DNA of 64,000 bases from Nanobdellota archaeon (lineage in GTDB: Archaea > Nanobdellota > Nanobdellia > Woesearchaeales > JAGWAF01): NCBI GenBank assembly GCA_038046365.1, contig JBBSWF010000020.1:14201-78200 (forward strand). The letters are read 5' to 3'. A program made the translations under genes and the position numbers. Positions 3,968 through 51,794 of the stretch are shown piece by piece (positions within the stretch are counted from its first letter, which is position 1; every line of letters begins with the position of its first letter). A model generated the notes under the pieces. The model did not search any database. It was given only the letters and a program-made list of their open reading frames with translations, and was not told where the DNA came from.

Positions 3968-3976
3968 GCGATTTGA

Positions 3977-6215: not shown

Positions 6216-6252
6216 TTATGGAACCGAAAACAGTGCAACCGAGCAGGCAATG

Positions 6253-7071: not shown

Positions 7072-7148
7072 GACCTGGCGGATGGGCTCTTGAAATAAAA
7101 GGGATATGGAAAAAGGCGGAAAGGATACGGACGCCTAGAAAGGTTTAA

Positions 7149-7173
7149 ATATATGACTCAATAAGTCATATAT
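7149..7173. promoter_or_regulatory. 10-bp perfect inverted repeat (atatatgact / agtcatatat, 5-nt spacer) in the divergent intergenic region next to a TTTAAATATAT box.
   Basis: Read directly from the sequence. It lies between divergent genes 6253..7071(-) and 7300..7662(+) and is a candidate operator. Confidence 0.4.
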
Positions 7174-7299
7174 TAGCGGTGAGCCAATGAAAACGCTGAT
7201 CGATGGCCTGACCGAGTTTTACGGCGAGAACGTAAAATAAGGGCAGCCATATCCACATCCGTGGGAGGGACAAAACTGACCGAGTGGAGATGAGTTGAA

Positions 7300-7662: not shown

Positions 7663-7720
7663 GGTCTGGTAGAGGATAGGATGGAGCTAATAGCGGATCG
7701 CAGTATCTATAGTTCAATAA

Positions 7721-33685: not shown

Positions 33686-33726
33686 ACGGCGCAATCGACC
33701 ATCGTCTCTATTTTCCCGACACGGCG

Positions 33727-34425
33727 TCAGCGAATACATTCCTTGAGCAACCTCAACAACTCCACCGCCTTCTTCGGGCTTCCACGACCGACAGGGAAGT
33801 AGCAAGGGATGACCTCGGAAGAGGCATATCTCGAGCGGTCGTTGTCTCCGAAGGAAACCTTGAACGTCCCCAACCTCTTCTTCGCCAGCGCTTGTGAATG
33901 ATAATCAGCGAGCTTGATCTTCCGCCCTGTCAAGCGCTCGAAAGGGATAAGACCCATCGCCACTAGGTATTTTGGCTTGACAATCTCCAGTTCACGCTGG
34001 AGAGCCGGGAGGAACAGATTGATCTTCGCCGAATCAGGCAAGGCAGCGTCAGCGCCGGTGGACTTGACGACATTCGAGATGTAGATGGAGTTGGAATCCA
34101 GGAAATCCCTCACCTTATCCGTGAAGCGGACAGACCATCGCGGGTTGGACTCGATATAAGAGAGCAATCCATCGTCGAAGAGCCCTGCCTTGTGGAAGAC
34201 CCTCCAGACCTGCTTGGTGCCGATGAACGGGAACCTCGGCCCAGTCCAGGAAGGATCAGAACTGATATTGCGGCGGGTCGGATTGATGAAGACGAACATA
34301 AACTCAGGATTCTGTTCACGACCTCCACCGTAGATCGGAGAGAGGCCGCTGCCCGGGAAGTTATCCTTGTCGATCTTGTCGACGTGACGCCAGAGGCTCT
34401 TCAGATCAGAGATATGATCGAGCAT
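33727..34425 (-). CDS. Uracil-DNA glycosylase superfamily protein (family 4-like).
   Basis: A motif-A-like segment is present (IYGGGREQNPEFMFVFINPTRRN). The C-terminal segment FPVGRGSPKKA matches the fold and length. The assignment is tentative. Confidence 0.45.
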   Translation of the reverse strand: MLDHISDLKSLWRHVDKIDKDNFPGSGLSPIYGGGREQNPEFMFVFINPTRRNISSDPSWTGPRFPFIGTKQVWRVFHKAGLFDDGLLSYIESNPRWSVRFTDKVRDFLDSNSIYISNVVKSTGADAALPDSAKINLFLPALQRELEIVKPKYLVAMGLIPFERLTGRKIKLADYHSQALAKKRLGTFKVSFGDNDRSRYASSEVIPCYFPVGRGSPKKAVELLRLLKECIR

Positions 34426-34527
34426 ATGGAAAGCAGCGCAAGCTGGTTAAAATAACTTTGTCAAACCGATCCTAGTGCGCGCAGAAACATTTATATATGT
34501 CTCTAAACCATAATACTATGGTCTAAC

Positions 34528-35094
34528 ATGGATAATGAACGCCTGAACATACTCAAGCTCCTGATAGAGAGCAAGGAAGAGACATTCAGCATCAGGCAGA
34601 TCTCGCTCCATAGGAAGATCAACTACAAATCAGCGTACATCAGCACCCATCAGCTAGCGAAAGAAGGGATAGTCGCAATGAAGAAACAGGGCAACACGAC
34701 AGTATGCTCATACAACAACACATTCAACAGCACAGTGTTCCAGGTCGAATACCAAAGACAGCAGGAACTGTTGAAACGCCCAGATTTCAAGGTCTTGCAC
34801 AACCGCCTGTCAAAGGTGAAAGAACAGTTCATACTCCTGCTCTTCGGCTCCTACGCCAAGGGAAAAGAGAAAAAAGGATCGGATATCGACCTATTGCTCA
34901 TCTCAGACGACCCAAAACCAGTCGAAGCACAGATCCGCCTCATCCCCTTGGACATCCATCTGACACACATAACCTATGACAGCTTCACAAAGATGTTAAA
35001 ATCAAAAGAGTTCACAGTAGTGTCAGAAGCGCAGAAGAATAACATCCTGCTCTTCGGAATAGAAGACTATTACCGGCTGATCAACAATGCTTGA
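34528..35094 (+). CDS. wHTH + minimal nucleotidyltransferase (MNT) protein.
   Basis: LLLFGSYAKGKEKKGSDIDLLLISDD NTase motif, preceded by a wHTH. Confidence 0.65.
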   Translation: MDNERLNILKLLIESKEETFSIRQISLHRKINYKSAYISTHQLAKEGIVAMKKQGNTTVCSYNNTFNSTVFQVEYQRQQELLKRPDFKVLHNRLSKVKEQFILLLFGSYAKGKEKKGSDIDLLLISDDPKPVEAQIRLIPLDIHLTHITYDSFTKMLKSKEFTVVSEAQKNNILLFGIEDYYRLINNA

Positions 35095-35617
35095 TGATAA
35101 TAGGATAAAGGAAGCGGAGAGGAACGTCAGAGAATACCTACAGTCAGGCATGCTCGAGAAGCATAAACCCGACAAAGACATCGAGAAAGTCCTCCTCGAC
35201 AACTCAAAGGACAGCATCGAGATAGCGGACTTCCTCGCAGAAAACAAGAGATCCGACCTGTGGATCATAGTCACCTCATATTATTCGATGTTCTACATGG
35301 CCAATGCGGTGCTCCTCAGAGCAGGATTCAAAGTCGGGGACAAGATCCCCCATAAGGTCACAGCCGACGCCCTCATCGTCTTTGTCAGAGACAAGCTGAA
35401 GAAGAGTATCATAGAAGAATATGAAGAAGCGCAAATCGAAGCTCTCCCTGGAATAAAAGCAGACGAGATAATCGACGAATTCGACAAGGAAAGAAGGAAG
35501 AGGGGCATACTCCAATACGAGACCACGCAAATAGAGAAACATTCGAAAGCGATTACTTCTTTAAACAGAGCCAAGAGCTTCCTCTTCGAGATGGAGAAGC
35601 TGATGGAGATCCCATGA
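35087..35617 (+). CDS. HEPN domain protein, partner of the upstream MNT.
   Basis: It overlaps the MNT stop by 8 nt. Helical protein with a YSMFYMANAVLLRAGF-type HEPN core. Confidence 0.55.
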   Translation: MLDDNRIKEAERNVREYLQSGMLEKHKPDKDIEKVLLDNSKDSIEIADFLAENKRSDLWIIVTSYYSMFYMANAVLLRAGFKVGDKIPHKVTADALIVFVRDKLKKSIIEEYEEAQIEALPGIKADEIIDEFDKERRKRGILQYETTQIEKHSKAITSLNRAKSFLFEMEKLMEIP

Positions 35618-37494: not shown

Positions 37495-38388
37495 CTAGAC
37501 CAAACCCATCCACAAACTAGGTATGCTCCGCTCGTGCTTCTCCTTGAAGAAGAAACCCTTGCCGCCATCGGCTGTCGGGCGCTCCACCACATTGACTCGC
37601 GGGCGGTAATGGTCGATCATGTCGAAGTTTGCTGTGGTGATGTTGAAGTTCTTCGCGCCGAGATTCCGAGAGATGGAGAGAGCCTTGAGAAAGACCTCAG
37701 GCATCATGACCGCGCAGCCGACATTGAGGACCACGCCTCCAGAGCTTTGGTCTCCGCCGAGATGGCAGACTGTATCAGTGAACTTGAGGAAGTCGTTGTA
37801 TGTCGCGAGGCCTAGTCTTGCGCCATCGCAGGCAGGATGCTGATGGATGATATCCGCGCCGATACCGACGTGGACCGTGTAAGGGATGCTCTTCTTCAAG
37901 CACTTGTAGGAGACGCTGAGGTCCTTTAGAGGGAGGTTCCGGTCTTCGATCATCTTGCCGTGGGCATAACCGTAACCTTTCTCGGCGTCCTTGTTGATCG
38001 CCTCGTTTATCCAGCGGCCAGTCTCCTCAGCCATGCCAAAAGAGCCGTCCTTGATCCTTGCGGCGACGTCCTCGCTAGTCTCGCCGCCGAAAGCCATCTC
38101 GAAATCATGGATCGAAGCAGCGCCGTTGGTGGCGAGATGCGTGATGAAACCCTTGTCGATGAGATCGACGATGTATCTCGAGAGACCCTGCTTGATAGCG
38201 TGGCCGCCCATCATGAAGATTATGGGCTTATTAGCTTTCTTAGCAGCCTTGATCCGCGCGATGAGATCCCTGAAGTCCACACTATCTATAGGATCAGGGA
38301 TGCTGGCGAGCGGCTTGACATCTGACAAGGATACCTTCGACGGGCGAGACTTGAGAGGGTAGGTGCGGATGCGGGAACGGTCGAACAT
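37495..38388 (-). CDS. dys: Deoxyhypusine synthase. The start was reassigned to the internal ATG at 38388.
   Basis: Typical DHS sequence (IIFMMGGHAIKQGLSRYIVDLIDKGFITHLATNGAASIHD... GGDQSSGG...). The upstream 56 codons of the tabulated ORF overlap hsdR and the shared promoter. Confidence 0.75.
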   Translation of the reverse strand: MFDRSRIRTYPLKSRPSKVSLSDVKPLASIPDPIDSVDFRDLIARIKAAKKANKPIIFMMGGHAIKQGLSRYIVDLIDKGFITHLATNGAASIHDFEMAFGGETSEDVAARIKDGSFGMAEETGRWINEAINKDAEKGYGYAHGKMIEDRNLPLKDLSVSYKCLKKSIPYTVHVGIGADIIHQHPACDGARLGLATYNDFLKFTDTVCHLGGDQSSGGVVLNVGCAVMMPEVFLKALSISRNLGAKNFNITTANFDMIDHYRPRVNVVERPTADGGKGFFFKEKHERSIPSLWMGLV

Positions 38389-38407
38389 AAGAGACTGAAG
38401 GAGAACG

Positions 38408-38420
38408 TCATATTTAAATC
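38408..38420. promoter_or_regulatory. Palindromic TATA-like element (tcatatttaaatc) in the 46-bp divergent intergenic region between dys and hsdR.
   Basis: Read from the sequence. It is about 20–27 nt from both start codons. Confidence 0.35.
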
Positions 38421-38434
38421 CCAATATATTCCCA

Positions 38435-41266
38435 ATGAGTAATATGCCTAAAGCGATTATCCCTCCAGAACAGAACGAGACGGAATCGCAGACCCGGATC
38501 ACCAAAATCAATGTCTCCCTTGAAGAGGCTGGCTGGAAAGTTCGAAGCAAGGCCATGGTCTGGGAAGAGGCAGATACCTTACAGTCAGATTTCAGGAGCG
38601 GAAACTACCTCACCCATGATGACACTTATGAAAATGAACAACAAAGCCGTTACGCAGATTATCTCCTCCTTGACTCAAAAGGTAATCCGTTGGCGGTAAT
38701 AGAGGCAAAAAAGACGACCAAGGACCCAGTAACCGGGCAAAAACAGGCAGAGGGCTACGTTGACGATATCAAGAAACAGACCGGGAAAGACCTGTTTATC
38801 TTCTTCACAAACGGTTATGAAATCTGGTTCTGGAACAGGCCATATGAGAACCCGCGATTAGTGAAGGGATTCCATAGCCGAGAAGACCTTGAGAACATCC
38901 GATTCCAGAACGAATCAAAGAAGGAGCTGTCTGACATACCTATCAGGACTGAAATCGTCAACCGCCCTTATCAGATTGAAGCCGTGAAAAGAGTCCTTGG
39001 AGGAATACAAAAAGGCAAAAGAAAATTCCTGATAGTCCAAGCCACTGGAACCGGGAAGACAAGGGTCGCGATGGCCTTGATTGATATATTGAAACGCTCG
39101 CATCGCGCAGAGCGGATCCTATTTCTCGCAGATAGAAAAGCCCTGAGAGACCAGGCATTTGATGAAGGGTTCAAAGAATGGTTGCCTGAAGAATCCCGGT
39201 CAAAGATATTTGGAGGAAGCCTTGATAAAAACGCGAAACTCTACGCTTCTACAATCCAGACATTTATGGAATGTTACAAGGAGTTCTCTATCGGCGCTTT
39301 TGACCTGATAATCTCTGACGAAGCACATAGGTCGATCTATAACAAATGGAAGGAGGTGTTCACGTATTTTGACGCAATCCAGATCGGTTTGACCGCAACC
39401 CCCTCAGATCTTATCGAAAAAGACACGTTCAAGTTCTTCCAGTGTGATGGGCAGCAACCGACCTTCCTGTATACATACGACCAAGCGAAAAAAGAAGGGT
39501 GGCTATGCGACTTCAAGCGATGGGAAGCGCAGACACATTTCCAGATCGAAGGAGTCAAGCCATCAGACATCCCAGACTCGATAAAGGCAAGACTAGCAGA
39601 GCAGGGCCTTGACGAGGAGGATATGGCCTGGGATGGGTCCTCCATAGAAAAAGAAGTGGCGGTGGTCGGCACGAACGAGGCTATCGTCAAGGAATTCATG
39701 GAGAACTGCATCAGAGACGAGACTGAAACACCTGCAAAAACTATAATATTCGCTGTGTCAAAAAAACATGCGAAAAGGATCTGGGAAGCTTTCGAGCGTC
39801 TCCATCCAGAATATAAAGGCAGACTTGCCCGGATAATAACCTCGGATGACAGCAGCGCGCAAAAGTTGCTGAAAGATTTCAAGACCGAAACGTACCCGCG
39901 GATAGCCATCTCGGTAGATATGCTAGACACAGGCGTAGACATCCCAGAGGTATGCAATCTAGTATTCGCCAAACCGGTCTTCTCCAAGATAAAATTCTGG
40001 CAGATGATCGGACGTGGCACAAGGAATGACGAAGCATGCAAAAAGAAAGAATGGATGCCTGGAGGTAAAAAAGAGTATTTCCTGATATTCGATTTCTGGA
40101 ACAATTTCGAGTTCTTCCAGATGAAGCCAGCTGGAAGAGAAGAAAAACCGACTGAAGCGATCGCTACCCGAATATTCAGGACACGGATCGAACAATTGAA
40201 GGATTTCATAAGCCAGGGAGATAAGAAGAGAGCCGACGAGGTCAAGAAGAGAATAAATCAAGACATCACGAGCCTTCCGCTGAAATCCGCATCATTGAAA
40301 GAACATATGAACGATATCGAAACCGCACTATCAGACGACTTCTGGGATAACGTAGGGATCGAACCAGTTAAATTCCTATCAGAGAGGATCAGACCATTGA
40401 TGAGGTTCCAGACAGATATCAATCTCAACAAGGCATCGTTCATACTGAAATGCGAGAGGCTCGGACTGGCAAGCCTACGCTCAGAAGAGCAAGGCATGGA
40501 AGAGCTAAAGGAGGGTATTGTGGCAGACATAAACCTCCTGCCAAAAACTCTCGACAAGGTCAAGGACAAGAAAGAGATGATATCCCGGGCGGTCAGCAAA
40601 GAATTCTGGGAAAAAGTCTCATATGATAACGCACAAGAGTTGATACGAGAACTCGGACAGGTAATCACATACAAGAGGAAAGAGGTCAAGAAGACTATCG
40701 TGCTGGACATAGATGATGTCGTCAAGCAACGCCGACTCATCGAGTACGGCCTTGAACCAAAACAAGAGTATGTCGATACCTATATCGAGAAAGTCGAGAG
40801 CCATATCAAGGAATTGGCGAGATCTGACACCACGATCAAGAAGATAGAAGCCGGCGAGCCGCTCGATGAAGAAGACCTCACCAAACTCGAAAAAAAGCTC
40901 AACAGCCCAGAGCTTTTCATAACCGAAGAAGTCATGCAGAAAGCGTATGAAAAGAGCAAAGGGACGCTGGTGCAATTCATAAAAAAGATACTCGGCCTCT
41001 ATGAGTTCCCTGACCCCAAGAAGCGGATCGAAGAAGAATTCAAGACCTTCATGATCGCGAACAACCAGTCTTACAACGCGGACCAGATCAATTTCTTACG
41101 GGCCATACAGACAGTCTTCGCAAAGAAGAAGCACATAGAATACGCCGACCTGTTCGACCCGCCATTCACGAACTTCGGGACACAGGCACCGGTACCCCTA
41201 TTCTCCAAAGAACAGCTCATCGACATAATCAAGCTATGCGATGAACTGGAAAATGAAGTTTTTTAG
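38435..41266 (+). CDS. hsdR: Type I restriction enzyme R subunit (HsdR), superfamily-2 helicase/nuclease.
   Basis: N-terminal [19 protein letters not shown]. Motif I is [10 protein letters not shown] and motif II is a DEAH-like ISDEAHRS. The length is 943 aa. Confidence 0.85.
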
Positions 41267-41267
41267 A

Positions 41268-41304
41268 TATTTGTTTACAAATCTAGCTTATTTGTAAACA
41301 AATA
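41268..41304. promoter_or_regulatory. 15-bp perfect inverted repeat (tatttgtttacaaat-ctagctt-atttgtaaacaaata). It lies between the hsdR stop and a TATA-like box (41306–41318) upstream of the RHH gene. It is a candidate operator/C-box and/or the hsdR terminator.
   Basis: Exact reverse-complement arms at 41268–41282 and 41290–41304. Confidence 0.55.
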
Positions 41305-41336
41305 GATATTTATAATAGATTCACTAATCGGCCTAT

Positions 41337-41756
41337 ATGACTTCACAAGAGTGGACCACCATATCTGTAAAGGTGACCAAGCAACAGAAGCAACTCATCG
41401 AACGGATATGCGAAAAGAATGGCAAGTCGGTCAACAAGCTTCTGAGCGGAATGATAGAACGGGAACTCAAACCTATGAGTGACCCCTCGTGTTTCCCAGA
41501 AAACCAGGGGATACCCCTAATCGGCGAGAACCGATTCTCCTACCTGCCTGAGAAAGACCAGTTCATCTGGAAGATAGATCTTGGCGTCCACGGATCCTCA
41601 ATACTCAGCGAAGAAGTCACGCCCGCATACCTTAAGAGCCTGTCCTCTGCAGTAGCGGAAGGCATCAAGCAGAGAGAGGATTTCAACGATAAACTGAATA
41701 GGGGCGCGGTCGTCCCGAAGAAACTCATCAAACTTGGGGTGAAACGCCGATGTTAG
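41337..41756 (+). CDS. Ribbon-helix-helix (CopG/Arc-like) DNA-binding protein embedded in the R-M operon. It is a candidate controller.
   Basis: N-terminal TISVKVTKQQKQLIERICEKNGKSVNKLLSGMIEREL fits a strand-helix-helix pattern. It overlaps the hsdM start by 7 nt. Confidence 0.5.
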   Translation: MTSQEWTTISVKVTKQQKQLIERICEKNGKSVNKLLSGMIERELKPMSDPSCFPENQGIPLIGENRFSYLPEKDQFIWKIDLGVHGSSILSEEVTPAYLKSLSSAVAEGIKQREDFNDKLNRGAVVPKKLIKLGVKRRC

Positions 41757-43234
41757 CGCCTGAACTGAAATCAAGGATCAACAAACTCTGGGACAAATTC
41801 TGGGCAGGAGGACTGGCAAACCCGCTGACAGCGATAGAGCAGATATCATACCTCATCTTCCTCCGACGGCTCGAAGACCTGGACGACCAGGAAGCAAAGA
41901 GAGCCGAGGCCCTGAAACATATCCACGCGTCGGTCTTCAAAGGCCACGAAGACTGCCGATGGTCGCACTGGAAACACTACAACGCTGAAGATATGCTGGT
42001 CCACGTCAGAGATAAGGTGTTCCCATTCCTGAAGAACATACAGAAGGGAGAGGACGGCGAGTTCTCAAGGCAGATGCAGGACGCGATATTCCTGATACCC
42101 AAACCATCACTGTTACAAGAAGCGGTCAGTATAGTAGACGAGCTGAACATCACCGCACGGAACCAGGACACACAGGGAGACATCTACGAATACCTACTGT
42201 CTGAACTCAACCAGGCCGGAAAAGCCGGGCAATTCAGGACCCCTCGCCATATAATCAGGATGATGGTAGAGATCGTGAATCCACAGTTTGGAGAGAAAAT
42301 ATGCGATCCGGCGTGCGGAACAGCCGGCTTCCTGATAAACGCCTATCAGCACATCCTGAAGATCAACACATCGCCCGAGACTGTCAAGTATGATGCAGAA
42401 GGCGTGGCATACAATCTTGTCGGGGACAAGATAACCGACAAGAAACAGTGGGAGGCTCTGCGACGGAATACATTGTATGGGTTCGATTTCGACCCGACGA
42501 TGGTCAGGATCGCCTCCATGAATATGATACTGCACGGGATAGAACACCCCAACATCAAGCGGTTCGACACGCTATCCAAGGCATTTGAACACATAGCCAC
42601 ATATGACGTGATACTCGCCAACCCGCCATTCACGGGAAGCATCGACTCCTCTGACATAAGCGCGGAGTTCAAGCTGAACACCACAAAGACCGAACTGCTG
42701 TTCTTAGAGCTGTTCCATAACCTCCTGGAGATCGGCGGACGATGCGCGGTGATAGTCCCGAACGGAGTGCTGTTTGGATCATCCAAGGCACACGTCCAGA
42801 TAAGAAAACTGCTCCTTGAGAAGTGCCAGATGGAAGCGGTGATCTCCATGCCATCAGGGGTATTCAAGCCCTATTCCGGCGTAGGGACCGCAGTTATAGT
42901 GTTCACGAAAGGCGGACAGACCAAAGACGTCTGGTTCTACGACATGAAATCAGACGGGTTCTCCCTCGATGACAAGCGAGATCTCATAGACGGGAAAGGT
43001 GACATACCAGACATCGTCGAACGATTCAAGAACAAGCAGAGCGGAGAGAACAGCATAATCGTCTCATTCGAAGATATCAGGAGCAATGACTATAACCTGT
43101 CCATATCTCGGTATAAAGAAGTCAAACACGAAGAGGTCGTCTATGAAAAACCTGAGGCTATCATCGAACGGGTGATGAAGAGAGAAGAGGAGATCACTAA
43201 AGAGCTTGCCGAACTCAAACGGATTATAAAATGA
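41750..43234 (+). CDS. hsdM: Type I restriction-modification N6-adenine DNA methyltransferase (HsdM).
   Basis: N-terminal ISYLIFLRRLED, motif I DPACGTAGFL and catalytic NPPF (LANPPFTG). Confidence 0.85.
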   Translation: MLAPELKSRINKLWDKFWAGGLANPLTAIEQISYLIFLRRLEDLDDQEAKRAEALKHIHASVFKGHEDCRWSHWKHYNAEDMLVHVRDKVFPFLKNIQKGEDGEFSRQMQDAIFLIPKPSLLQEAVSIVDELNITARNQDTQGDIYEYLLSELNQAGKAGQFRTPRHIIRMMVEIVNPQFGEKICDPACGTAGFLINAYQHILKINTSPETVKYDAEGVAYNLVGDKITDKKQWEALRRNTLYGFDFDPTMVRIASMNMILHGIEHPNIKRFDTLSKAFEHIATYDVILANPPFTGSIDSSDISAEFKLNTTKTELLFLELFHNLLEIGGRCAVIVPNGVLFGSSKAHVQIRKLLLEKCQMEAVISMPSGVFKPYSGVGTAVIVFTKGGQTKDVWFYDMKSDGFSLDDKRDLIDGKGDIPDIVERFKNKQSGENSIIVSFEDIRSNDYNLSISRYKEVKHEEVVYEKPEAIIERVMKREEEITKELAELKRIIK

Positions 43235-44568
43235 CACTCAAAGAGACAGAAACACTGGAACTCAAAAAATCCACAGCAGAACTAAAAGACGGCATAATCT
43301 CAATAGTTGCCATTTTGAATAAACACAACAAAGGAATACTCTATTTTGGCGTAAAAAACAATGGCGAACCAATAGGGCAATCCATATCAGATGCTACACT
43401 CAGAGAGATCTCCCAAACAATATCCAGTAACATAGAACCAAAAATATACCCAGAAATCCATACCGAAAGCTTAAACGATAAAAAATGCATAAAATTGTCA
43501 TTCGAAGGCCATGACCAACCATACCTAGCATATGGTAGGGCCTACACTAGGGTCGCTGATGAAGACAAACAACTATCAGCCAAAGAACTAGAAAACCTGA
43601 TAATGCGCAAAAACAGCGAACACCTAAATTGGGATGGAGAACCATGCAAAACAGCAAAAATCACAGACGTAAACACCAACCGAATCAAAACATTCCTAAA
43701 AACAACAGGGAAGAAATACGACTCTGTACAAAACGTGCTAGAAAAACTCCACCTACTAAAAGGATCTTACCTGACCAACGCCGCAATAGCACTATTCGGC
43801 AAAGATCCAGACAAATACTTCATGAATGTCTATCTTAGATGCGCCACCTTCGCCACAGAAGACACCACAGTGCCACTTGACATGCAAGACTTCCATGGCG
43901 ATGTATTCAGCTTGATAGACAAAGCAGAATCGTACATACTCAAAAATATCCACATAGGTATGAGATTAGAAGGCTTACGAAGAGTTGATGTGCCTGAGAT
44001 CAACAGAGATGCTATCCGAGAAGCGATTTTGAATGCATTTTGCCATAGAGACTATAAAAGAATGGACTCGGTGGATGTCGCCGTGTTCAAAGACAAGGTA
44101 GAGATACGAAGCCCAGGACTATTAATAGACAATCTGACCATAGAAGAAATAAGATCGAAACAAGTATCTGTAAGAAGGAATCCACTGATCGCACGCATCT
44201 TCAAGGAAGGAAACCTAATCGAAAGCTGGGGAACAGGCATCAAGAAGATGATGACCCTAGAACCCACCCTGCAAATGGAGGAGTTAGGCTCTTACTTTAT
44301 CGTCAGATTTCTTAGACCGAGAGGGGCAGAACATTCAGGAAAGGTCCTAGAAAAGGTCCTAGAAAAGGTCCTAGAAAAGGTCACTAAAAACCAGAAGAGA
44401 ATCCTCGAAGAAATATCAAAAAACAACACCCTAACAAGCAGAGAGCTAGCCAAAATCGTAGGAATCTCCGAGAGAAAAATCAGGGTAAACATCGCCAAAC
44501 TCAAGACCAAAGGACTACTAAGAAGAATAGGACCTGACAAAGGCGGACACTGGGAGATCATCAAATGA
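43231..44568 (+). CDS. AlbA_2/Schlafen-like divergent AAA (putative DNA-binding) domain protein with a C-terminal wHTH. It is an R-M-associated accessory gene.
   Basis: N-terminal ETLELKKSTAELKDGIISIVAILNKHNKGILYFGVKNNGEPIGQ matches the AlbA_2/AAA-4 N-terminus. The C-terminal wHTH is TLTSRELAKIVGISERKIRVNIAKLKTKGLL. It is ATGA-coupled to hsdM. Confidence 0.6.
   Translation: MTLKETETLELKKSTAELKDGIISIVAILNKHNKGILYFGVKNNGEPIGQSISDATLREISQTISSNIEPKIYPEIHTESLNDKKCIKLSFEGHDQPYLAYGRAYTRVADEDKQLSAKELENLIMRKNSEHLNWDGEPCKTAKITDVNTNRIKTFLKTTGKKYDSVQNVLEKLHLLKGSYLTNAAIALFGKDPDKYFMNVYLRCATFATEDTTVPLDMQDFHGDVFSLIDKAESYILKNIHIGMRLEGLRRVDVPEINRDAIREAILNAFCHRDYKRMDSVDVAVFKDKVEIRSPGLLIDNLTIEEIRSKQVSVRRNPLIARIFKEGNLIESWGTGIKKMMTLEPTLQMEELGSYFIVRFLRPRGAEHSGKVLEKVLEKVLEKVTKNQKRILEEISKNNTLTSRELAKIVGISERKIRVNIAKLKTKGLLRRIGPDKGGHWEIIK
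44341..44382 (+). repeat. In-frame 12-nt tandem repeat (aaggtcctagaa, 3.5 copies) encoding (KVLE)n within the AlbA_2 gene.
   Basis: Read from the sequence. Confidence 0.7.
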
Positions 44569-44768
44569 AACAATCTGATCCGCATAAGGCAGTGTGTAGG
44601 GTATGCAACAAGAAGTCCAAGGAATCTCCTTGCGAGAACTGCGCATATCTGATAAAAAATGGCGCAAGCGAAGAAACCATCAAAAAGATGCTAGGAGACA
44701 AACGAGTCAACAAGATATGGGAAGAGAACAAAGAAACTACGGATTCAACACATTCTGCGAAGGCATAA
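44565..44768 (+). CDS. Small zinc-ribbon-like protein (CxxC..CxxC), translationally coupled (ATGA) to the AlbA_2 gene.
   Basis: CRVCNKKSKESPCENC motif with the start overlapping the upstream stop. Confidence 0.45.
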   Translation: MKQSDPHKAVCRVCNKKSKESPCENCAYLIKNGASEETIKKMLGDKRVNKIWEENKETTDSTHSAKA

Positions 44769-44770
44769 AC

Positions 44771-44887
44771 ATGACACTGGATATAATCATGCCGCTGCTG
44801 GACAAAGAATCACAAAAGAAAATCAAGGCAAAAATACTTATGATGATGGAATCGAGATACATGCGCAAGGAGAAGAAGAGAAAATGA
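44771..44887 (+). CDS. 38-aa micro-protein MTLDIIMPLLDKESQKKIKAKILMMMESRYMRKEKKRK. A diverged paralog exists at 54745..54861.
   Basis: Protein-level conservation with a second 38-aa ORF despite diverged DNA. It is ATGA-coupled to the downstream gene. Confidence 0.45.
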   Translation: MTLDIIMPLLDKESQKKIKAKILMMMESRYMRKEKKRK

Positions 44888-45522
44888 ATACTACCCCTAT
44901 TGCTCTAAGTAAGAATTTTTATGTTCTCACTAACGATCAGACTCATCAGGTATTTGACAAAAGAGATAAAAAATCTCACCCTCTTACAGAATTAGAGACC
45001 AAGATTATTATCTATGAAGATAGAGTTAAACATTGGTTTTTGCAGATAGCGGAGAATCTGAAGAATGATAATGAAGCTGGATTTGTAATTCTTTCCATAG
45101 CAATAGCTTACATAGAGGGAAACCAGCAGTTTAGGGATGGAAAGAGTAGTGCTCCTCAGTTTAAAAATGGAAAGCGTATTGCCGGGAAGTCAGAGAAGTT
45201 CTTTATTAAGGGGATGAGAAGAATTTTTGACAAAGAAGATGTACCAAAGCCCATACTTAAAAGTTATTATGGTCAAATACGATGCGGACTTTTTCATGAT
45301 GGGATGACTAAGAAAAATGTAGTTATTTCCTGTGAGTTCCCAAATCCGATCAGCTATACTGGAAGCCAAGATGGACAGAATGGTGTGATTATGATAAATC
45401 CGCATAAGTTTCTCGATAAGCTCACAGAAGATTTTGAGGGATATATTTCTGAACTGAAAGCCGGTTCTGATACTGAAATTATTAAGAATTTTGAAACAAG
45501 GTGGCAATTAGAAAATGCATAA
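44884..45522 (+). CDS. Hypothetical 212-aa protein encoded between the hsdM module and hsdS, in markedly AT-rich DNA.
   Basis: Clean ORF, ATGA-coupled upstream, overlapping the hsdS start by 8 nt. No recognisable motif. The local GC is far below the window average. Confidence 0.5.
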   Translation: MNTTPIALSKNFYVLTNDQTHQVFDKRDKKSHPLTELETKIIIYEDRVKHWFLQIAENLKNDNEAGFVILSIAIAYIEGNQQFRDGKSSAPQFKNGKRIAGKSEKFFIKGMRRIFDKEDVPKPILKSYYGQIRCGLFHDGMTKKNVVISCEFPNPISYTGSQDGQNGVIMINPHKFLDKLTEDFEGYISELKAGSDTEIIKNFETRWQLENA

Positions 45523-46705
45523 ATTACCTAAAAATTGGGAATGGAAAAAATTAGGGAATATCTGTACGAGTAAAGCCCAATATGGTTCTGGTGCTAAAAA
45601 GGCAGATTTTGATGGTAAAGTGAGGTATATAAGAATTACAGATATTGAGGATAATGGAAATTTAAAAAATGATGAATTTGTCTCTCCCTCTTTGACAGAG
45701 GAGGAGTGCTTTTTAGAAAAAGATGATTTACTTTTTGCACGTTCCGGTTCAGTTGGTAGAACTTATCTTCATTCCAAAAATGATCTAAAGTACCAATTTG
45801 CGGGTTATCTTATCAGGTTCAAAATAAACCCCAAGATTGCTGATGCGAAGTATGTTTTTTATATAACTAAGTCAAAATACTACTTAAGTTGGGTTGAATC
45901 TTTAAAACGAAATGTAACAATCTCAAACATAAATGCAAAAGAGTATTCTTCGTTAGAAATCCCCGTCCCCCCTCTACCCGTCCAAAAGGAGATAGTCGCA
46001 ATCCTCGAACGAGCAGAAGCACTCAAACAAAAAAGAGAACAAGCCAACAAAGACACCAACACAATAATCCAAAGCCGGTTCTACGAGATGTTTGGTGATC
46101 CGATAAAATCTGATAAATGTGAATCTTTACCAATTTCTGCGGTTACCAGCTTTGTTTCTTATGGGTTCACACGCCCTATGCCTCATTTGGACAAAGGAAT
46201 TCCCATTATAACCTCAAAAAATGTTTTTTCGGGGTTTATTAACTATGATCAAGTGGACTTTACTGATGAAAAATCCTTTTCGGAATTATCAAAAAAGGAT
46301 CGCCCGATAATGGGCGATATCTTATATACAAAGGATGGCAGAATTGGGGAAGCTGCATTAGTGAAGATAAACTCCCCTTTTTGTATAAGTCAGGCAGTGG
46401 CTATACTAAGACCTATCCCAAACAAGATCAACCCGCTTTTCTTTGAGTCCTTACTAAATTCCGACAAGTTCAAAAAAGTGGTTAACTCAATGGCTTATGG
46501 CGTTGCATTGAAACATATCTCAATAACAAAACTAGGGGCATTAAACATCGTTGTCCCCCCCATTGAGCGTCAAAATCTATTTGCTTCATTCGTTGAGATG
46601 GTATGTTCACTAAAACGAAAGCAGAATGATGTGAACTCGGAGATTAATGTACTTTTCGACGCGCTGATGCAGAAGGCGTTCAATGGGGAGTTGTCTTCGG
46701 GGTGA
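45515..46705 (+). CDS. hsdS: Type I R-M specificity subunit (HsdS) with two target-recognition domains.
   Basis: Central conserved LEIPVPPLPVQKEIVAILERAEALKQ and distal conserved LNIVVPPIERQNLFASFVEMV...NSEINVLFDALMQKAF repeats. Confidence 0.85.
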   Translation: MHKLPKNWEWKKLGNICTSKAQYGSGAKKADFDGKVRYIRITDIEDNGNLKNDEFVSPSLTEEECFLEKDDLLFARSGSVGRTYLHSKNDLKYQFAGYLIRFKINPKIADAKYVFYITKSKYYLSWVESLKRNVTISNINAKEYSSLEIPVPPLPVQKEIVAILERAEALKQKREQANKDTNTIIQSRFYEMFGDPIKSDKCESLPISAVTSFVSYGFTRPMPHLDKGIPIITSKNVFSGFINYDQVDFTDEKSFSELSKKDRPIMGDILYTKDGRIGEAALVKINSPFCISQAVAILRPIPNKINPLFFESLLNSDKFKKVVNSMAYGVALKHISITKLGALNIVVPPIERQNLFASFVEMVCSLKRKQNDVNSEINVLFDALMQKAFNGELSSG

Positions 46706-46713
46706 GCGAATAA

Positions 46714-47119
46714 ATGACGATCCTCTACATCGATACAAACATCCTCCTGAACGCCGCCTTAGAGGAAAAGAACCTGACCGGCAAAGACCTAGCGACCCCC
46801 GCCTCCCGCCTATTCCTCGAAGCGCTCACCTGCAAATACACACTCCTTATATCATCATGGACTATCAAAGAAATGATGAGAAAGATACCAATCGAACACA
46901 TCCGGTCAACGATGGCGATATTGAACCCAAAAATCAGACAATGCCCATATGACCAACAAGATGAAGCGTCAGCCCGCGCCAGATCAAAGGATAATTTTCC
47001 TGATGCATTACATATAATAATCGCCGAAAAAAAAGGCGGATTACATAATCACTCGAGATCTGCATGATTTTCTTAAGATTGGGACACGGATCCCGATAAG
47101 AACGCCGGAGTCACTTTAA
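46714..47119 (+). pseudogene. PIN-domain (VapC-like) gene interrupted by a +1 frameshift in an A8 homopolymer (47027–47034). The downstream frame restores the ...IITRDLHDF C-terminal PIN motif.
   Basis: N-terminal ILYIDTNILLNAAL (first acidic PIN residue). After the A-run the +1 frame reads DYIITRDLHDFLKIGTRIPIRTPESL and stops at 47117–47119. Confidence 0.55.
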
Positions 47120-48301
47120 TCCAACTTGCTCGAAGAGCCACTCTTGGAATCTCTTATGGCCCAGTTCCTTCTCTTTTCGAGTCAGTTCCGCTATTCCCGC
47201 TTTTTTCTCTTCAGGAGATAATTCTCTCGCAGAACCCTGCAAAACCTTAAGTTTCCGACCGATCTCATCGTCAGGGAGCTCATATTTAGGAAGGGCCTCA
47301 TATAATGAGTCCATAGATTCCAAACACGTCTCCTTCAACTCATTCAACCGTTCGAAGAAATAGTCTTTCAACAGTTCCTTGTCGAAAAAACGTGTCAGTG
47401 AATCATATAATTCATATGTCGCCACTAACTGCCAAACGTTGTTGAAATTCTCAATCACAATAGGCTTCGATTGGTTGATCTCATCAACTGAGCCATGCCT
47501 TAGAATCTGTAACACGCTTGAACAGAAATCATCCACCAAAGCGATTATCCATGAATTAAACTCCTTTCTCTCCAGATTGAATATGAAATTGTTTAGAGCC
47601 TCACGAATCTTGTTCTTATTCTTAGGATCATTATAATCGAAATAGGTCAAATAGTATGATAAATCCTCCTTTACCAGATAGAGAGGTTTCTTCTTCTTCT
47701 CATATTGATGTCTTCTAATCTTGTAGGAGGCATCACAGCACCCACAATATTCCTTGCATACCCCTCTAATGTATCCCACCTTCGGAGTCTCATCGATCGG
47801 AGGCCCATAATCCTGATCCGAATCAAATGGGAGCATAAGGATCTCTCCGTACAGATACCAGCCTCTAGGAACCTCAGGGTGAAGTTCTTCAATCACATCC
47901 ACTGCGATCTTCTGCATCAATGTCTTCGACAAAGGTTTGTCACAGATAGAAGGCCAGACTTTGAGTACTGTCGCATAAACCTTCTTGATACGCTCTTTGG
48001 ACTCCGCGCTTAACGGAATCGAAAACAGGGTGTCTGATTTGTAAGACCTCATCTTCTGATAGACTACTTTTCCGTTCTCCTCTAATCGCCGAAGCACATC
48101 TATCTTAACAAAAACTTCAACATGCCGCTTGACACTATCGTAACTGACACCTGCCTCTTTGGCGATGTCCTGTATGCTCATAGATCTACCTGCGTGCGAA
48201 GAAAGAACCTCCAAAATTTTCTGCGACACCTCACCTGCTGCGCGCTTGCCCATCGGTCTCGGATGATTTCGCAAGCGGTAGTATATATACCTTTTCATCA
48301 A
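47111..48301 (-). CDS. Hypothetical protein with an N-terminal HTH.
   Basis: HTH SIQDIAKEAGVSYDSVKRHVEVF, then a long helical C-terminal region. Confidence 0.5.
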   Translation of the reverse strand: MMKRYIYYRLRNHPRPMGKRAAGEVSQKILEVLSSHAGRSMSIQDIAKEAGVSYDSVKRHVEVFVKIDVLRRLEENGKVVYQKMRSYKSDTLFSIPLSAESKERIKKVYATVLKVWPSICDKPLSKTLMQKIAVDVIEELHPEVPRGWYLYGEILMLPFDSDQDYGPPIDETPKVGYIRGVCKEYCGCCDASYKIRRHQYEKKKKPLYLVKEDLSYYLTYFDYNDPKNKNKIREALNNFIFNLERKEFNSWIIALVDDFCSSVLQILRHGSVDEINQSKPIVIENFNNVWQLVATYELYDSLTRFFDKELLKDYFFERLNELKETCLESMDSLYEALPKYELPDDEIGRKLKVLQGSARELSPEEKKAGIAELTRKEKELGHKRFQEWLFEQVGLK

Positions 48302-49384: not shown

Positions 49385-50218
49385 ATGGACCAGGAATCAG
49401 CTTTAGTGGTCTTCCAGGACAAGAGGATAAGGAGGACGTGGCAAGAAGGAGAATGGTGGTTCTCAATAGAAGATATAGTCTATGCGTTGACTGATTCTAA
49501 GGACCCAAAACAGTACATCCAGAAGATGAAGCAACGGGATGAGCCCCTATCCGAAGGGTGGGTACAGATTGTACATACCCTTCCTATGCAGACCGAAGGC
49601 GGCGTCCAACTGATGAACAGCGTAAATGTCAAAGGAGCGTTTAGGGTCATCCAGTCCATCCCATCTAGCAAAGCCGAACCATTCAAGATATGGCTTGCCA
49701 AAGTAGGATATGAGCGGGTCCAGGAGATCGAGAACCCGGAACTGGCACAGGAGAGGATGAAGGAACTCTACGAACAGAAAGGATACTCAAAAGAATGGAT
49801 CGAGAAGAGATTGAGAGGCATCGCAGTACGGCAGGAACTGACAGGCGAATGGAAACAGAGAGGAGCGGACGAGAACAAGGAGTATGCCATACTCACCAAT
49901 GAGATCAGCCAGGCGACCTTCGGAAAGACAGTCGATGAATACAAACAGCTCAAAGGCCTGAACAAAGAGAACCTGCGCGACCACATGGACGACCTTGAAC
50001 TGATATTCACGATGCTAGGGGAAAAGGTAACGACCGAGATCACAAAGAAAGACGACGCGCAAGGATTCCCTGAATGCAAAGACGCCGCGCACCGAGGCGG
50101 ACGGGTCGCAGGCAGCGCCAGAAAAGACGCCGAGAAAGAGATAGGCAGGGATATCTCGACACCAGAGAACTACCTCGACGCGCCAGAGAAAGAGAAAAGG
50201 AAGAGGATAGGGAAATAG
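49385..50218 (+). CDS. DinD / Bro-N-like (DNA-damage-inducible protein D family) protein.
   Basis: N-terminal FQDKRIRRTWQEGEWWFSIEDIVYALTD is a Bro-N-like pattern. The central region resembles E. coli DinD (for example GYSKEWIEKRLRGIAVRQELTGEWKQRGA). Confidence 0.5.
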   Translation: MDQESALVVFQDKRIRRTWQEGEWWFSIEDIVYALTDSKDPKQYIQKMKQRDEPLSEGWVQIVHTLPMQTEGGVQLMNSVNVKGAFRVIQSIPSSKAEPFKIWLAKVGYERVQEIENPELAQERMKELYEQKGYSKEWIEKRLRGIAVRQELTGEWKQRGADENKEYAILTNEISQATFGKTVDEYKQLKGLNKENLRDHMDDLELIFTMLGEKVTTEITKKDDAQGFPECKDAAHRGGRVAGSARKDAEKEIGRDISTPENYLDAPEKEKRKRIGK

Positions 50219-51041: not shown

Positions 51042-51794
51042 ATGGAATGCATACCAAAAGATAAGCTCAAAGAGATCGTGAATGAACAGGAATTATCTGA
51101 ACTGCTCCTATACCCCGCGATCTTCCCAAACGCTGAATTCATCCTCGAACATGAATTCCCGGAATATCGCGTGATTGACGCGTATTGCGTCAACCCTGAA
51201 TGCAAATGCGAAGAGGTAGCATTGTATTTCACGAAAAAGCAAGGCGATGAGCTTAAACACGAATTTTCCTTCGTGTTTGAATATATACATCATGACGTGC
51301 TCGCCTGTGACGATATCCCAGATCATGAAGCCGCCGAGATAATAAAAAAGATTCCCACTACAACAATTGACGATATCAAGAAGAGACGCGAGCAACTCAG
51401 ACTTGCTGTACTCGAAGAGATGTCGATCAAACTAGAGAGCCATAAAAACACAGCGAAAAGGAAATTAGGCCGTAATGAACTCTGCCATTGCGGCTCAGGC
51501 ATCAAGTACAAGAAATGCTGCCTGAAGATGGACATCGAGAAGAACGGCAAACCCATGATGATCCTGGACCCTGAATCAGGTGAGGAAGACAGCTTCTGGC
51601 AGAAAGGCTCGTTCGCCCAATCAGTCAGCAAGGAGGATATGGAGAGAAAAAACCGCACGATCCACATGAGCCATGATGAAGATATGGACTTCGACTGCAA
51701 GAAGTGCGACACTAAGATATCCGCGCACAACAAGGACTGGCATGACGGCATGTGCGACGAGTGCTTCGATAAAACCTACTTCAGGGACCGATAA
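51042..51794 (+). CDS. SEC-C motif (metal-binding) domain protein with a C-terminal zinc ribbon.
   Basis: NELCHCGSGIKYKKCC is the SEC-C motif. CKKCDTKISAHNKDWHDGMCDEC is the C-terminal zinc ribbon. Confidence 0.6.
   Translation: MECIPKDKLKEIVNEQELSELLLYPAIFPNAEFILEHEFPEYRVIDAYCVNPECKCEEVALYFTKKQGDELKHEFSFVFEYIHHDVLACDDIPDHEAAEIIKKIPTTTIDDIKKRREQLRLAVLEEMSIKLESHKNTAKRKLGRNELCHCGSGIKYKKCCLKMDIEKNGKPMMILDPESGEEDSFWQKGSFAQSVSKEDMERKNRTIHMSHDEDMDFDCKKCDTKISAHNKDWHDGMCDECFDKTYFRDR

Follow-up and report, generated by a model that had tools for sequence, protein, structure and literature searches.

A Type I restriction-modification locus with extra operon genes in a groundwater DPANN archaeon as a probable mosaic of defence genes

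A groundwater DPANN archaeon is the host of an intact-looking Type I restriction-modification (R-M) locus with extra genes in its operon, which raises the question of whether these genes are parts of one expanded restriction machine or a mosaic of defence genes. In the window (the whole 64-kb stretch of DNA that was analysed), all nine ORFs (9/9) were found on the plus strand at the coordinates given below, confirming the gene order from hsdR to PIN that the first-pass annotation had proposed, together with its picture of additional genes packed tightly between hsdM and hsdS of a Type I R-M locus. The family assignments were upheld by Pfam and PADLOC searches, in which HsdR, HsdM and HsdS far exceeded the thresholds. 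The hsdR gene (38435-41266, +) encodes a 943-aa, type IB/EcoAI-like restriction subunit (Pfam: ResIII, 135.5 bits; EcoEI_R_C, 89.5; Helicase_C, 38.7; HSDR_N, 30.8; PADLOC: REase_I, 460.5 bits); it scored 283 bits against the EcoAI family of NCBIfam, under the equivalog cutoff, and its translation shows DEAH and D...ExK motifs. The hsdM gene (41750-43234, +) encodes a 494-aa Type I N6-adenine methyltransferase carrying an NPPF motif (N6_Mtase, 225.6 bits; HsdM_N, 59.3; PADLOC MTase_I, 577.8), and hsdS (45515-46705, +) a 396-aa specificity subunit with two target-recognition domains (Methylase_S, 97.4 bits in two stretches; PADLOC Specificity_I, 231.9). Judged by sequence, these three genes look intact and the Type I system looks functional.

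The genes had been described as one co-translated unit in which successive genes overlap by ATGA or by 7–8 nt. When the junctions were read from the sequence, overlaps were present at five of the eight, namely 7 nt at ORF139/hsdM, 8 nt at ORF212/hsdS and ATGA at hsdM/AlbA_2, AlbA_2/ORF67 and ORF38/ORF212, while the other three proved to be gaps of 2 nt (ORF67/ORF38), 8 nt (hsdS/PIN) and 70 nt (hsdR/ORF139). The single unit thus breaks at its first junction, and since two palindromic boxes lie with a TATA-like element in the 70-nt spacer, the genes follow the classical arrangement of two predicted transcription units, hsdR alone and hsdM through hsdS (the M-S unit). The two boxes, a putative operator pair (41269-41303, unstranded), are exact 14-bp sequences, ATTTGTTTACAAAT (41269-41282) and ATTTGTAAACAAAT (41290-41303), which lie 21 nt apart and together make up a perfect 15-nt inverted repeat. 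Apart from these two boxes, the window has no match to ATTTGTWWACAAAT, even with two mismatches allowed; in the shuffle control, at least two matches occurred in 9 of 100 shuffles. A similar motif (ATTTGTATACAAAT and ATTTGTAAACA) was found at the same position in the orthologous locus L005. A TATA-like box, tttataat (41309-41316, +), which precedes the ORF139 start codon by ~25 nt, is the putative promoter of the M-S unit; another TATA-like element, atatttaaat (38410-38419, +), precedes the hsdR start codon by ~20 nt and is the putative hsdR promoter in a 46-nt divergent intergenic region.

The small product of ORF139 (41337-41756, +) is RHH-like at its N-terminus (residues ~6-48), followed by an uncharacterised C-terminal domain. 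Its Pfam matches were all sub-threshold, all to RHH-fold families (RepB-RCR_reg, RHH_1, NikA-like and DUF6290) and all at residues 7-46, and the same RHH-fold matches were also obtained for its homologues in L005 and in a second related DPANN locus, L025. The AF2 model (overall pLDDT 66) shows beta(6-14)-alpha(15-28)-alpha(32-48), with pLDDT 74-80 in that part; a Foldseek search with this model returned no significant match. ORF139 is ~48-49% identical to a 141-aa gene at the same position in L005, and in L025 its homologue lies directly upstream of an ORF212 homologue. Since ORF139 leads the M-S unit in all three loci and is RHH-like, it is probably an autorepressor, which would bind the two palindromic boxes beside its own TATA box and repress the operon. 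It would thereby fill the role of a controller protein. The controller (C) proteins of Type II systems, such as C.PvuII, C.AhdI and C.Esp1396I, are of the Xre-type HTH class and bind paired palindromic C-boxes; here, likewise, a putative DNA-binding protein heads the operon with two palindromic boxes immediately upstream, at the promoter, but the putative regulator is RHH-like, has an extra ~90-aa domain and belongs to an archaeal Type I system.

The extra genes sort into four classes: ORF139, ORF212, the Schlafen gene with ORF67 and ORF38, and PIN. The orthologous locus L005 has the layout R-139-M-212-S, without the Schlafen gene, ORF67 and ORF38, and its products are 69% (HsdR), 79% (HsdM), 57% (HsdS) and 69-71% (ORF212) identical to those of the window. 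Because ORF139 and ORF212 are both kept, their linkage to the R-M system is real, which supports the earlier view to that extent; for PIN and for the Schlafen gene, ORF67 and ORF38 it is not supported. The latter three make up a 1,653-bp insertion that is missing from L005; there, hsdM and the ORF212 homologue share an ATGA overlap, and the hsdM/ORF212/hsdS coupling is kept. Since this insertion is missing from the one orthologous locus compared and close AlbA_2 homologues occur outside R-M contexts, it is a predicted passenger cassette of recent arrival. The tight ATGA couplings around it could nevertheless reflect co-option rather than mere hitch-hiking.

The main gene of the cassette (43231-44568, +; 445 aa) encodes a prokaryotic Schlafen of the "Schlatpase"-HTH kind, with an AlbA_2 nuclease domain (PF04326; 55.3 bits, cutoff 25.3), a GHKL ATPase domain (PF13749, HATPase_c_4; 63.8 bits, cutoff 26) and a C-terminal wHTH (HTH_24, above threshold). 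The nuclease motif E5-x4-E10-x-K12 and the ATPase residues E264-x3-N268 were invariant in 24 homologues. More than 2,438 homologues, 50-60% identical, span bacterial and archaeal phyla; among their settings are a position behind an hsdM, a provirus-like stretch and a stand-alone gene. Prokaryotic Schlafens defend against phage, tRNA cleavage has been demonstrated for the Schlafen-Argonaute RzAgo, the Schlafen-HisKinase-HTH form accounts for 19.2% of architectures, and 69.6% of prokaryotic Schlafens have a defence gene within 10 kb (PMC13056530; bioRxiv 10.64898/2026.05.29.728809). The window protein shares with these pSlfn/Schlatpase proteins the order of AlbA_2, GHKL and C-terminal HTH, as well as the E-x4-(D/E)-x-K nuclease motif and the conserved GHKL E/N residues (PMC13056530; bioRxiv 10.64898/2026.05.29.728809); it differs in its archaeal (DPANN) host, and its activity is predicted. 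In Poribacteria, Type I operons carry Schlatpase modules either stand-alone or fused to HsdS (bioRxiv 10.64898/2026.05.29.728809). The window gene likewise stands alone within a Type I operon, but it lies between hsdM and ORF212/hsdS, is ATGA-coupled and has two orphan micro-ORFs behind it. Homology to characterised prokaryotic Schlafens predicts that its product acts in abortive infection as an ATP-dependent tRNase, a second line of defence that would borrow the transcription and translational coupling of the operon without needing the R-M enzyme.

The two micro-ORFs were less clear. ORF67 (44565-44768, +), ATGA-coupled to the Schlafen gene and annotated by NCBI as AABX47_01485, had been labelled a Zn-ribbon; its CxxC-x8-CxxC motif is present, while the DZR match was sub-threshold (E = 0.024). 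Its frame has the top codon score of the three. ORF38 (44771-44887, +), a doubtful micro-ORF that bridges ORF67 to ORF212 and whose stop overlaps the ORF212 ATG, is the weakest gene call: it is skipped by the NCBI annotation, another gene caller preferred a 56-aa version, and its codon signal is weak (0.19 bits per codon vs 0.28 +/- 0.15 for in-frame windows). Homologue searches found no homologues of either. Since the two together occupy 323 nt between two ATGA couplings, a length not divisible by 3, and both frames are open over 44603-44768, they are possibly one split gene, and ORF38 could be the tail of a frameshifted ~107-aa gene shared with ORF67.

The frameshift reported in PIN (46714-47119, +; VapC-like) is real, as three-frame translation shows. 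With one A removed from an A8 run (47027-47034), the gene encodes 135 aa, and this repaired product passes PF13470 (PIN_3; 30.9 vs cutoff 27) and aligns without gaps, at 49% identity, with the intact 135-aa PIN at L016:1773-2180. L001 and L002, which come from different samples, both carry the A8 run, as does L128, an assembly rich in indels. The end of PIN is overlapped by a convergent gene (47111-48253, -) for a 380-aa wHTH protein (HTH_24, E = 8.8e-4), which matches L016:2177-3319(-) over its full length (26% identity, E = 4e-35), and this homologue is likewise convergent with a PIN. Because the convergent pair recurs in L016, PIN belongs to a neighbouring module and is not the tail of the R-M operon, as had been supposed. 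NCBI names the product a VapC family toxin, and the repaired protein, a PIN_3 above the Pfam threshold, resembles the toxins of type II toxin-antitoxin systems; it differs in having no upstream antitoxin gene, in its convergent wHTH partner and in its A8 frameshift, owing to which it would be disabled or possibly slippage-dependent.

The sole fresh lead of the locus is the ORF212 family. ORF212 (44884-45522, +) had no match in Pfam, NCBIfam or PADLOC, and a fold search of PDB and BFVD with its mostly helical AF2 model (pLDDT 91.3) gave no match at E <= 0.001. The family is large and unannotated (2,224 representative clusters), with W51, E78, S103 and R133-x4-H138 invariant in an alignment of 40 diverse members. 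The order M-212-S was found in L005, L007, L009 and L050, and 212-S in L047, where the upstream side is cut off. Among relatives with enough flanking sequence, HsdS adjoins 4 of 8 at >= 50% identity, 2 of 22 at 40-50% and 1 of 47 below 40%; the commonest neighbouring families are Methylase_S downstream (8/56) and N6_Mtase upstream (7/61). Relatives 50-58% identical to ORF212 fill the M/S slot of systems whose HsdM is only ~24% identical to that of the window. A sub-clade of the family thus adjoins hsdS across unrelated Type I families, and ORF212 appears to move together with the specificity part of the operon. Since it is kept in the ortholog and adjoins hsdS, ORF212 may serve as a true subunit or guardian instead of acting autonomously; across the family, most members lie away from R-M genes, some of them solitary on plasmids, which argues against an obligate R-M role. 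ORF212 would most likely be an autonomous or HsdS-associated defence factor.

Overall, the best explanation, to which we give a probability of about 70% and all functional steps of which we infer, is a classical two-unit Type I system whose M-S operon would have turned into a mosaic landing site for further defence genes. Two independent additions would lie between hsdM and hsdS: ORF212 (~200 aa), directly upstream of hsdS, and later the 1,653-bp Schlafen-nuclease/GHKL-ATPase/HTH cassette with its one or two micro-ORFs, which would have entered after ORF212 was in place. Base composition supports this reading: it breaks at the hsdM/AlbA_2 junction, where GC3 falls from 0.65 to 0.44, it is 0.32 in ORF212 and 0.37 in hsdS, and a low-GC block spans 43 to 55 kb. 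On this reading the locus is a defence mosaic of a kind already known rather than a newly fused machine, and to speak of a canonical system fused with additional components overstates a mosaic. R-M loci with co-expressed extra genes have been described, and accessory genes inside them are a known phenomenon with PrrC as the paradigm: in EcoprrI/PrrC, the gene of an anticodon nuclease is embedded in a Type IC R-M locus (Makarova et al. 2013, PMC3632139; EcoSal Plus 2025, PMC12707154). As in that system, a Type I hsd locus contains an RNase gene of the abortive-infection type, accessory genes are apparently co-expressed with R-M subunits, and the logic is one of layered immunity and suicide; unlike it, the window has no PrrC-type ABC-ATPase/anticodon nuclease, the embedded effector is a Schlafen/GHKL/HTH protein, and there is a second embedded gene, ORF212, of no described family. 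The rlo ("R-linked ORF") genes in Type I hsd loci of Campylobacter jejuni, reportedly described by Miller et al. in 2005, are likewise unrelated, variable ORFs between hsd genes that differ among otherwise orthologous loci; other gene families are inserted there, and the likeness is one of arrangement.

An alternative that we hold to be unlikely leaves the rest of this picture unchanged and makes ORF212 a PrrC-like guardian or fourth subunit, which binds the HsdS/M2S1 core, is kept inactive by it, fires when phage anti-restriction proteins disable the enzyme and may act as a HEPN-like RNase via the invariant R-x4-H. Besides the PrrC precedent, the invariant residues and the confident helical model, it draws on the overlap of the ORF212 stop with the hsdS start, on the hsdS neighbourhood in unrelated families, where ORF212 is far better conserved than the R-M subunits, on a natural fusion in L136, where a 56-nt deletion joins ORF212 in frame to HsdS, and on a replicated fusion to a HEPN_AbiU2 domain beside a Gabija-like gene pair. 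However, the HsdS fusion is known from a single 2-kb contig, the HEPN fusion would fit equally well an ORF212 domain that senses rather than cleaves, none of 40 members matched a HEPN family even at E <= 10, and in the model, which has no fold match, R133 closes a helix and H138 falls in a short turn, unlike the usual single-helix placement; the many members away from R-M genes also speak against it. Quite improbable, in our view, is the expanded machine itself, with all five accessory genes as co-translated parts that regulate, extend or back up restriction: the 4-8 nt overlaps at five of eight junctions, the retention of ORF139 and ORF212 in L005 and the published Schlatpase-HsdS fusions would fit it, but hsdR is set apart by the promoter/operator region, L005 keeps the M-212-S coupling without the cassette, close Schlafen homologues live outside R-M contexts, the micro-ORFs lack any homologue found, and PIN is frameshifted and part of a different conserved pair. 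Least credible of all is a decaying locus, in which the micro-ORFs and PIN are debris, the insertions are eroding the R-M system and the couplings are functionless leftovers. The PIN frameshift in L001, L002 and L128, the possibly split ORF67/ORF38 gene and the mosaic composition agree with it, but no truncation or loss of a catalytic or invariant motif affects hsdR, hsdM, hsdS, the Schlafen gene or ORF212, and the fragmented versions in L128 and L129 come from indel-rich assemblies that are 99.8% identical, which points to assembly error rather than real decay.

All nine open reading frames listed in the first-pass annotation were found on the + strand (hsdR, ORF139, hsdM, the AlbA_2/GHKL/wHTH Schlafen gene, ORF67, ORF38, ORF212, hsdS and PIN), and HsdR, HsdM and HsdS were named as such by Pfam, PADLOC and NCBIfam. 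HsdR scored above the Pfam cutoffs for ResIII, Helicase_C, HSDR_N and EcoEI_R_C and reached 460.5 bits against PADLOC REase_I, the make-up of an SF2 helicase/translocase with an N-terminal nuclease region. HsdM matched as an N6-adenine methyltransferase (N6_Mtase 225.6 bits and HsdM_N 59.3 bits in Pfam; MTase_I 577.8 bits in PADLOC), and HsdS showed two target-recognition domains (Pfam Methylase_S 97.4 bits, in two stretches; PADLOC Specificity_I 231.9 bits). The DEAH, D...ExK and NPPF motifs were readable in the translations of the core genes, NPPF being in HsdM. The three genes look intact and type IB/EcoAI-like, and Type I restriction-modification (R-M) function, with m6A methylation of a bipartite site and ATP-dependent cleavage at a distance, is predicted from these sequences. 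Upstream of hsdR lies a divergent gene (37495-38556, - strand) whose longest ORF of 353 aa would overlap the hsdR start (38435); the gene callers gave a 297-aa version ending at 38388, leaving a 46-nt divergent promoter region before hsdR.

The locus had been described as a single co-translated unit in which successive genes overlap. Five of the eight junctions did overlap, by 7 nt between ORF139 and hsdM, by 8 nt between ORF212 and hsdS, and by ATGA at hsdM/AlbA_2, AlbA_2/ORF67 and ORF38/ORF212, but the other three were gaps, of 70 nt between hsdR and ORF139, 2 nt between ORF67 and ORF38 and 8 nt between hsdS and PIN. The 70-nt gap contains the boxes ATTTGTTTACAAAT (41269-41282) and ATTTGTAAACAAAT (41290-41303), two exact 14-bp copies located 34-68 nt upstream of the ORF139 ATG, which combine into a perfect 15-nt inverted repeat. 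These boxes were the sole matches to the motif ATTTGTWWACAAAT in 64 kb when up to two mismatches were tolerated, and a related motif, ATTTGTATACAAAT plus ATTTGTAAACA, occupies the orthologous position in the R-M locus L005. Downstream of the boxes, the sequence tttataat lies about 25 nt ahead of the ORF139 ATG, and hsdR has a TATA-like element of its own. Because of the gap with its inverted-repeat boxes, the tttataat sequence and the separate element of hsdR, the locus appears to have the classical two-unit Type I layout, with hsdR set apart, and not that of one co-translated string. A sigma-70 promoter and terminator scan returned counts equal to the shuffle expectation, the scan model being uninformative for an archaeal host.

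The gene that heads the second unit, ORF139, gave only sub-threshold Pfam matches, and its N-terminal 50 residues matched families of the ribbon-helix-helix (RHH) fold exclusively (RepB-RCR_reg, RHH_1, NikA-like and DUF6290, residues 7-46). The same RHH-only, sub-threshold pattern was obtained with its homologues in L005 and L025, three homologues in all. The AF2 model showed a beta(6-14)-alpha(15-28)-alpha(32-48) order with a local pLDDT of 74-80; a Foldseek search with this low-confidence model returned nothing significant, the RHH regulator AvtR ranking third at E = 0.26. A word-indexed homologue search found two proteins only. One slot-matched relative is the 141-aa gene of L005 (49% identity), and in L025 a 139-212-x-S-x-M cluster opens with the ORF139 homologue, immediately followed by an ORF212 homologue. 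The palindromic, operator-like pair lies at ORF139's own promoter, as would be looked for in an RHH regulator, and we infer that ORF139 is a putative operon-leading RHH autorepressor. By analogy with the C proteins of Type II systems a controller-like role is possible; however, C proteins are Xre-type HTH proteins, whereas ORF139 matched no HTH family and has an RHH-like topology, and it is thus not a member of the C family. Type I systems are controlled mainly post-translationally, and to our knowledge a transcriptional controller of such a system would be unusual, although a literature search gave no confirmation of this. A possible RHH-type repressor with paired operators at the start of a Type I M-S operon is of secondary interest. 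The idea that the small ORFs upstream of ORF212 homologues are RHH regulators in general was rejected: it is true of the ORF139 homologues only, and the other small upstream genes encode glyoxalase, transposase, PD-(D/E)XK proteins and others.

Between hsdM and ORF212 lies a cassette that probably did not belong to the original operon. Its 445-aa product combines AlbA_2 (PF04326, 55.3 bits against a cutoff of 25.3), a GHKL domain (HATPase_c_4, PF13749, 63.8 bits against 26) and a C-terminal wHTH (HTH_24, residues 386-431, 33.2 bits against 21.9). The nuclease motif E5-x4-E10-x-K12 and the GHKL residues E264 and N268 were invariant across 24 homologues, in agreement with the published Schlafen nuclease motif E-x4-(D/E)-x-K (PMC13056530; bioRxiv 10.64898/2026.05.29.728809) and with the catalytic GHKL residues E314 and N318 of RzAgo, the equivalents of E264 and N268 (bioRxiv 10.64898/2026.05.29.728809). 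Among the architectures of prokaryotic Schlafens, Schlafen-HisKinase-HTH has a share of 19.2%; for 69.6% of these genes a defence gene is no more than 10 kb away, and several prokaryotic Schlafens act in phage defence (PMC13056530). The "Schlatpase" module brings about ATP-dependent tetramerisation and tRNA cleavage, and it occurs in Type I operons of Poribacteria either alone or fused to HsdS (bioRxiv 10.64898/2026.05.29.728809). By analogy with these members, for which they have been demonstrated, tRNA cleavage and phage defence are predicted for the Schlafen protein of the window.

The Schlafen family is large (>2,438 matches), with 50-60% identity across unrelated phyla. Of three close homologues, one stands after an hsdM, with more AlbA_2 paralogues, another is part of a provirus-like region, and the third is a lone gene with redox genes around it. 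An array of paralogues attached to a Type I methylase was seen in L011 (ENA ERZ27247100 k141_402578, 1257-8212), where an apparently split hsdM is followed by three consecutive AlbA_2-family genes of 631, 346 and 441 aa and then by KwaB; no hsdS was seen there. L005 shares with the window 69% identity in HsdR, 79% in HsdM, 48% in ORF139, 69-71% in ORF212 and 57% in HsdS, values that mark it as a real ortholog. In this locus hsdM runs straight into the ORF212 homologue through an ATGA overlap, and there is no Schlafen gene, ORF67 or ORF38; GC3 in the window falls from 0.65 in hsdM to 0.44 in AlbA_2 at the junction. Because of both observations, 43231-44883 is read as a 1,653-bp insertion, a predicted passenger cassette, and for these three genes the proposal of integrated accessory components does not stand, since the ortholog keeps its linkage in their absence. 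From 43231 to about 55000 the GC content is low (0.35-0.46, compared with 0.50-0.55 in both flanks). This block also holds ORF212, hsdS, PIN, the wHTH gene and genes for Bro-N (49385-50218), SEC-C-motif (51042-51794), TPR (52224-53234) and SWIM (53247-54686) proteins; it starts exactly at the hsdM/AlbA_2 junction and therefore places a compositional island boundary inside the R-M operon.

Within the cassette, ORF67 encodes a CxxC-x8-CxxC motif and gave a sub-threshold match to DZR; NCBI annotates it, and its frame had the highest codon score of the three. ORF38 was skipped by the NCBI annotation, is 56 aa long according to another gene caller and has weak codon support. ORF67, ORF38 and a 94-aa alternative frame had no relatives in viral contigs or in the fetched loci. 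Since the two ATGA couplings around them are separated by 323 nt, a distance not divisible by 3, and both frames are open over 44603-44768, ORF67 and ORF38 may be parts of one gene of about 107 aa that a frameshift has divided.

The trailing PIN gene had been reported as frameshifted, and this was borne out. Frame 1 stops after 117 aa and frame 2 runs on to 47119; removal of one A from an A8 run (47027-47034) yields a 135-aa protein that passes the PIN-domain threshold (PF13470, 30.9 bits against 27) and can be aligned without gaps with a 135-aa ORF that is intact on an Aenigmatarchaeota contig (L016), the two being 49% identical. The A8 run is present in L001 and L002, which come from two different samples, and in the indel-rich assembly L128. 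Its place in the operon was not upheld: in both the window and L016, PIN faces a homologous 380-aa wHTH gene (E = 4e-35) in convergent orientation, with a slight overlap between the two. PIN, whose frameshift is genuine, is one of the two genes of a neighbouring module. Although VapC/PIN toxins share its domain, the PIN of the window has no intact frame, is preceded by hsdS and not by an antitoxin, and has the convergent wHTH gene as its partner. PIN and ORF139 as the halves of a split VapBC pair were also rejected, since PIN has this conserved partner of its own and L005 contains ORF139 but lacks PIN. In the assemblies L128 and L129 of this same locus (ENA ERZ2470813 and ERZ1286166), four genes are fragmented by indels: hsdR, the Schlafen gene, ORF212 and hsdS. 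Both assemblies are 99.8% identical to the window, with 15-17 gaps and at most 2 mismatches, a pattern of assembly error that led us to reject pseudogenisation of hsdR, hsdS and ORF212 in relatives. The protein databases hold spurious truncated versions from these assemblies (P0340, P0351 and P0338).

ORF139, ORF67, ORF38 and ORF212 matched no PADLOC or NCBIfam model, and for the ORF212 family there was no Pfam model either; its RefSeq plasmid copies are annotated "hypothetical protein". The word index gave 71 homologues of ORF212, and a profile search gave 2,224 representative clusters at 50% identity, 1,227 of them at E <= 1e-10. In 40 diverse members W51, E78, S103, R133 and H138 were invariant, the last two within the motif RCGLFHDG. 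The AF2 model is confident (pLDDT 91.3) and begins with a meander of four strands, after which come six helices. Foldseek against the PDB gave nothing at E <= 0.001 and against BFVD only two uncharacterised phage proteins (E = 6e-3 and 1.8e-2), a PDB profile search gave one spurious homeobox match, and tblastn against the phage database gave no match. The invariant R133-CGLF-H138 has the form of the HEPN-type R-x4-6-H motif, but a HEPN assignment was not supported, as no HEPN family appeared at E <= 10 in a Pfam run of the 40 alignment members (the only signal, Sec7 in 11 members with a best E of 4e-4, is probably spurious) and the placement of R-x4-H in the AF2 model is atypical. An anticodon nuclease of the PrrC/RloC kind was likewise rejected: those proteins join an N-terminal ABC-type NTPase to a C-terminal anticodon-nuclease domain, whereas ORF212, at 212 aa, has no P-loop and gave no ATPase match.

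The genomic context of ORF212 was surveyed in 112 non-redundant loci. Among loci with at least 1 kb downstream, HsdS abutted the ORF212 relative in 4 of 8 at >= 50% identity to the ORF212 of the window, 2 of 22 at 40-50% and 1 of 47 below 40%. Across the family, the commonest downstream neighbour was Methylase_S (8/56) and the commonest upstream neighbour N6_Mtase (7/61), the remainder being other defence, mobile-element and housekeeping genes; the defence neighbours included OLD nucleases, a TOTE helicase, MORC-like HATPase_c_3, Type ISP, IIG and III enzymes, SIR2-STAND, Mrr and MvaI/BcnI. Relatives of 50-58% identity occupy the M/S slot in loci whose HsdM is only ~24% identical to that of the window and whose HsdR is of another family, and this clade is far better conserved than the flanking hsdM and hsdS. 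In loci with S-M gene order ORF212 still precedes hsdS, immediately in L067 and separated from it by one or two genes in L014 and L025. On one contig (L136, JGI Ga0209542_10184139), a 56-nt deletion between two A-runs relative to L047 removes the last 10 codons of an ORF212 homologue and the first 8 of hsdS and joins the two in frame into a fusion protein of at least 522 aa. A 475-aa fusion of an ORF212-family domain to HEPN_AbiU2 occurs on five contigs; both fetched examples, L137 and L138 (Logan SRR10609162 and SRR31738697), have a UvrD-like helicase nearby, and the longer, L137, also has an OLD-type ATPase, giving a Gabija-like pair, while L138 stops before that gene. SEC-C-motif proteins were seen near ORF212-family genes in three unrelated loci (window 51042-51794; L009 9848-11134, between hsdS and hsdR; L135 11776-12456), and this recurrence may reflect a co-occurring partner or coincidence.

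Taken together, the neighbourhoods indicate that ORF212 represents a defence-island family, one clade of which appears tied to the Type I specificity end. A bolder reading, to which we give a probability of about 0.15, is that the family would be an undescribed, widespread defence component, one clade of which would be an HsdS-associated fourth Type I partner, moving with the specificity end between unrelated Type I families and triggered, as guardian or effector, once restriction is blocked. Reviews describe extra genes, variable and apparently co-expressed, in R-M loci of every type, and work through PrrC/EcoprrI as an example of an R-M guardian (PMC3632139; PMC12707154). Because such extra genes, and Schlafen modules in Type I operons, have already been published, the locus is of a known kind and exemplifies the rule that other defence genes use Type I hsd operons as landing pads. 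Its own contribution is an archaeal (DPANN) case in which a Schlafen/GHKL/HTH effector is spliced into the M-S unit through start-stop overlaps, and its one fresh element is the ORF212 family, a cheap and well-defined candidate for defence-system screens. The first-pass annotation was largely right in what it observed, but the evidence bears out only part of its picture of one expanded, fused system.

Elsewhere in the window, a single giant ORF of 4,603 aa occupies 10556-24367 (+ strand), within a stretch of strongly positive AT skew and negative GC skew. The region 33071-35617 contains two NTP_transf_2 (MNT-like) genes (33071-33685 and 34528-35094), with a UDG-family gene (33727-34425) on the opposite strand; the second MNT-like gene overlaps a 176-aa ORF (35087-35617) that matched no family, and the two could form an MNT/HEPN-type toxin-antitoxin pair.
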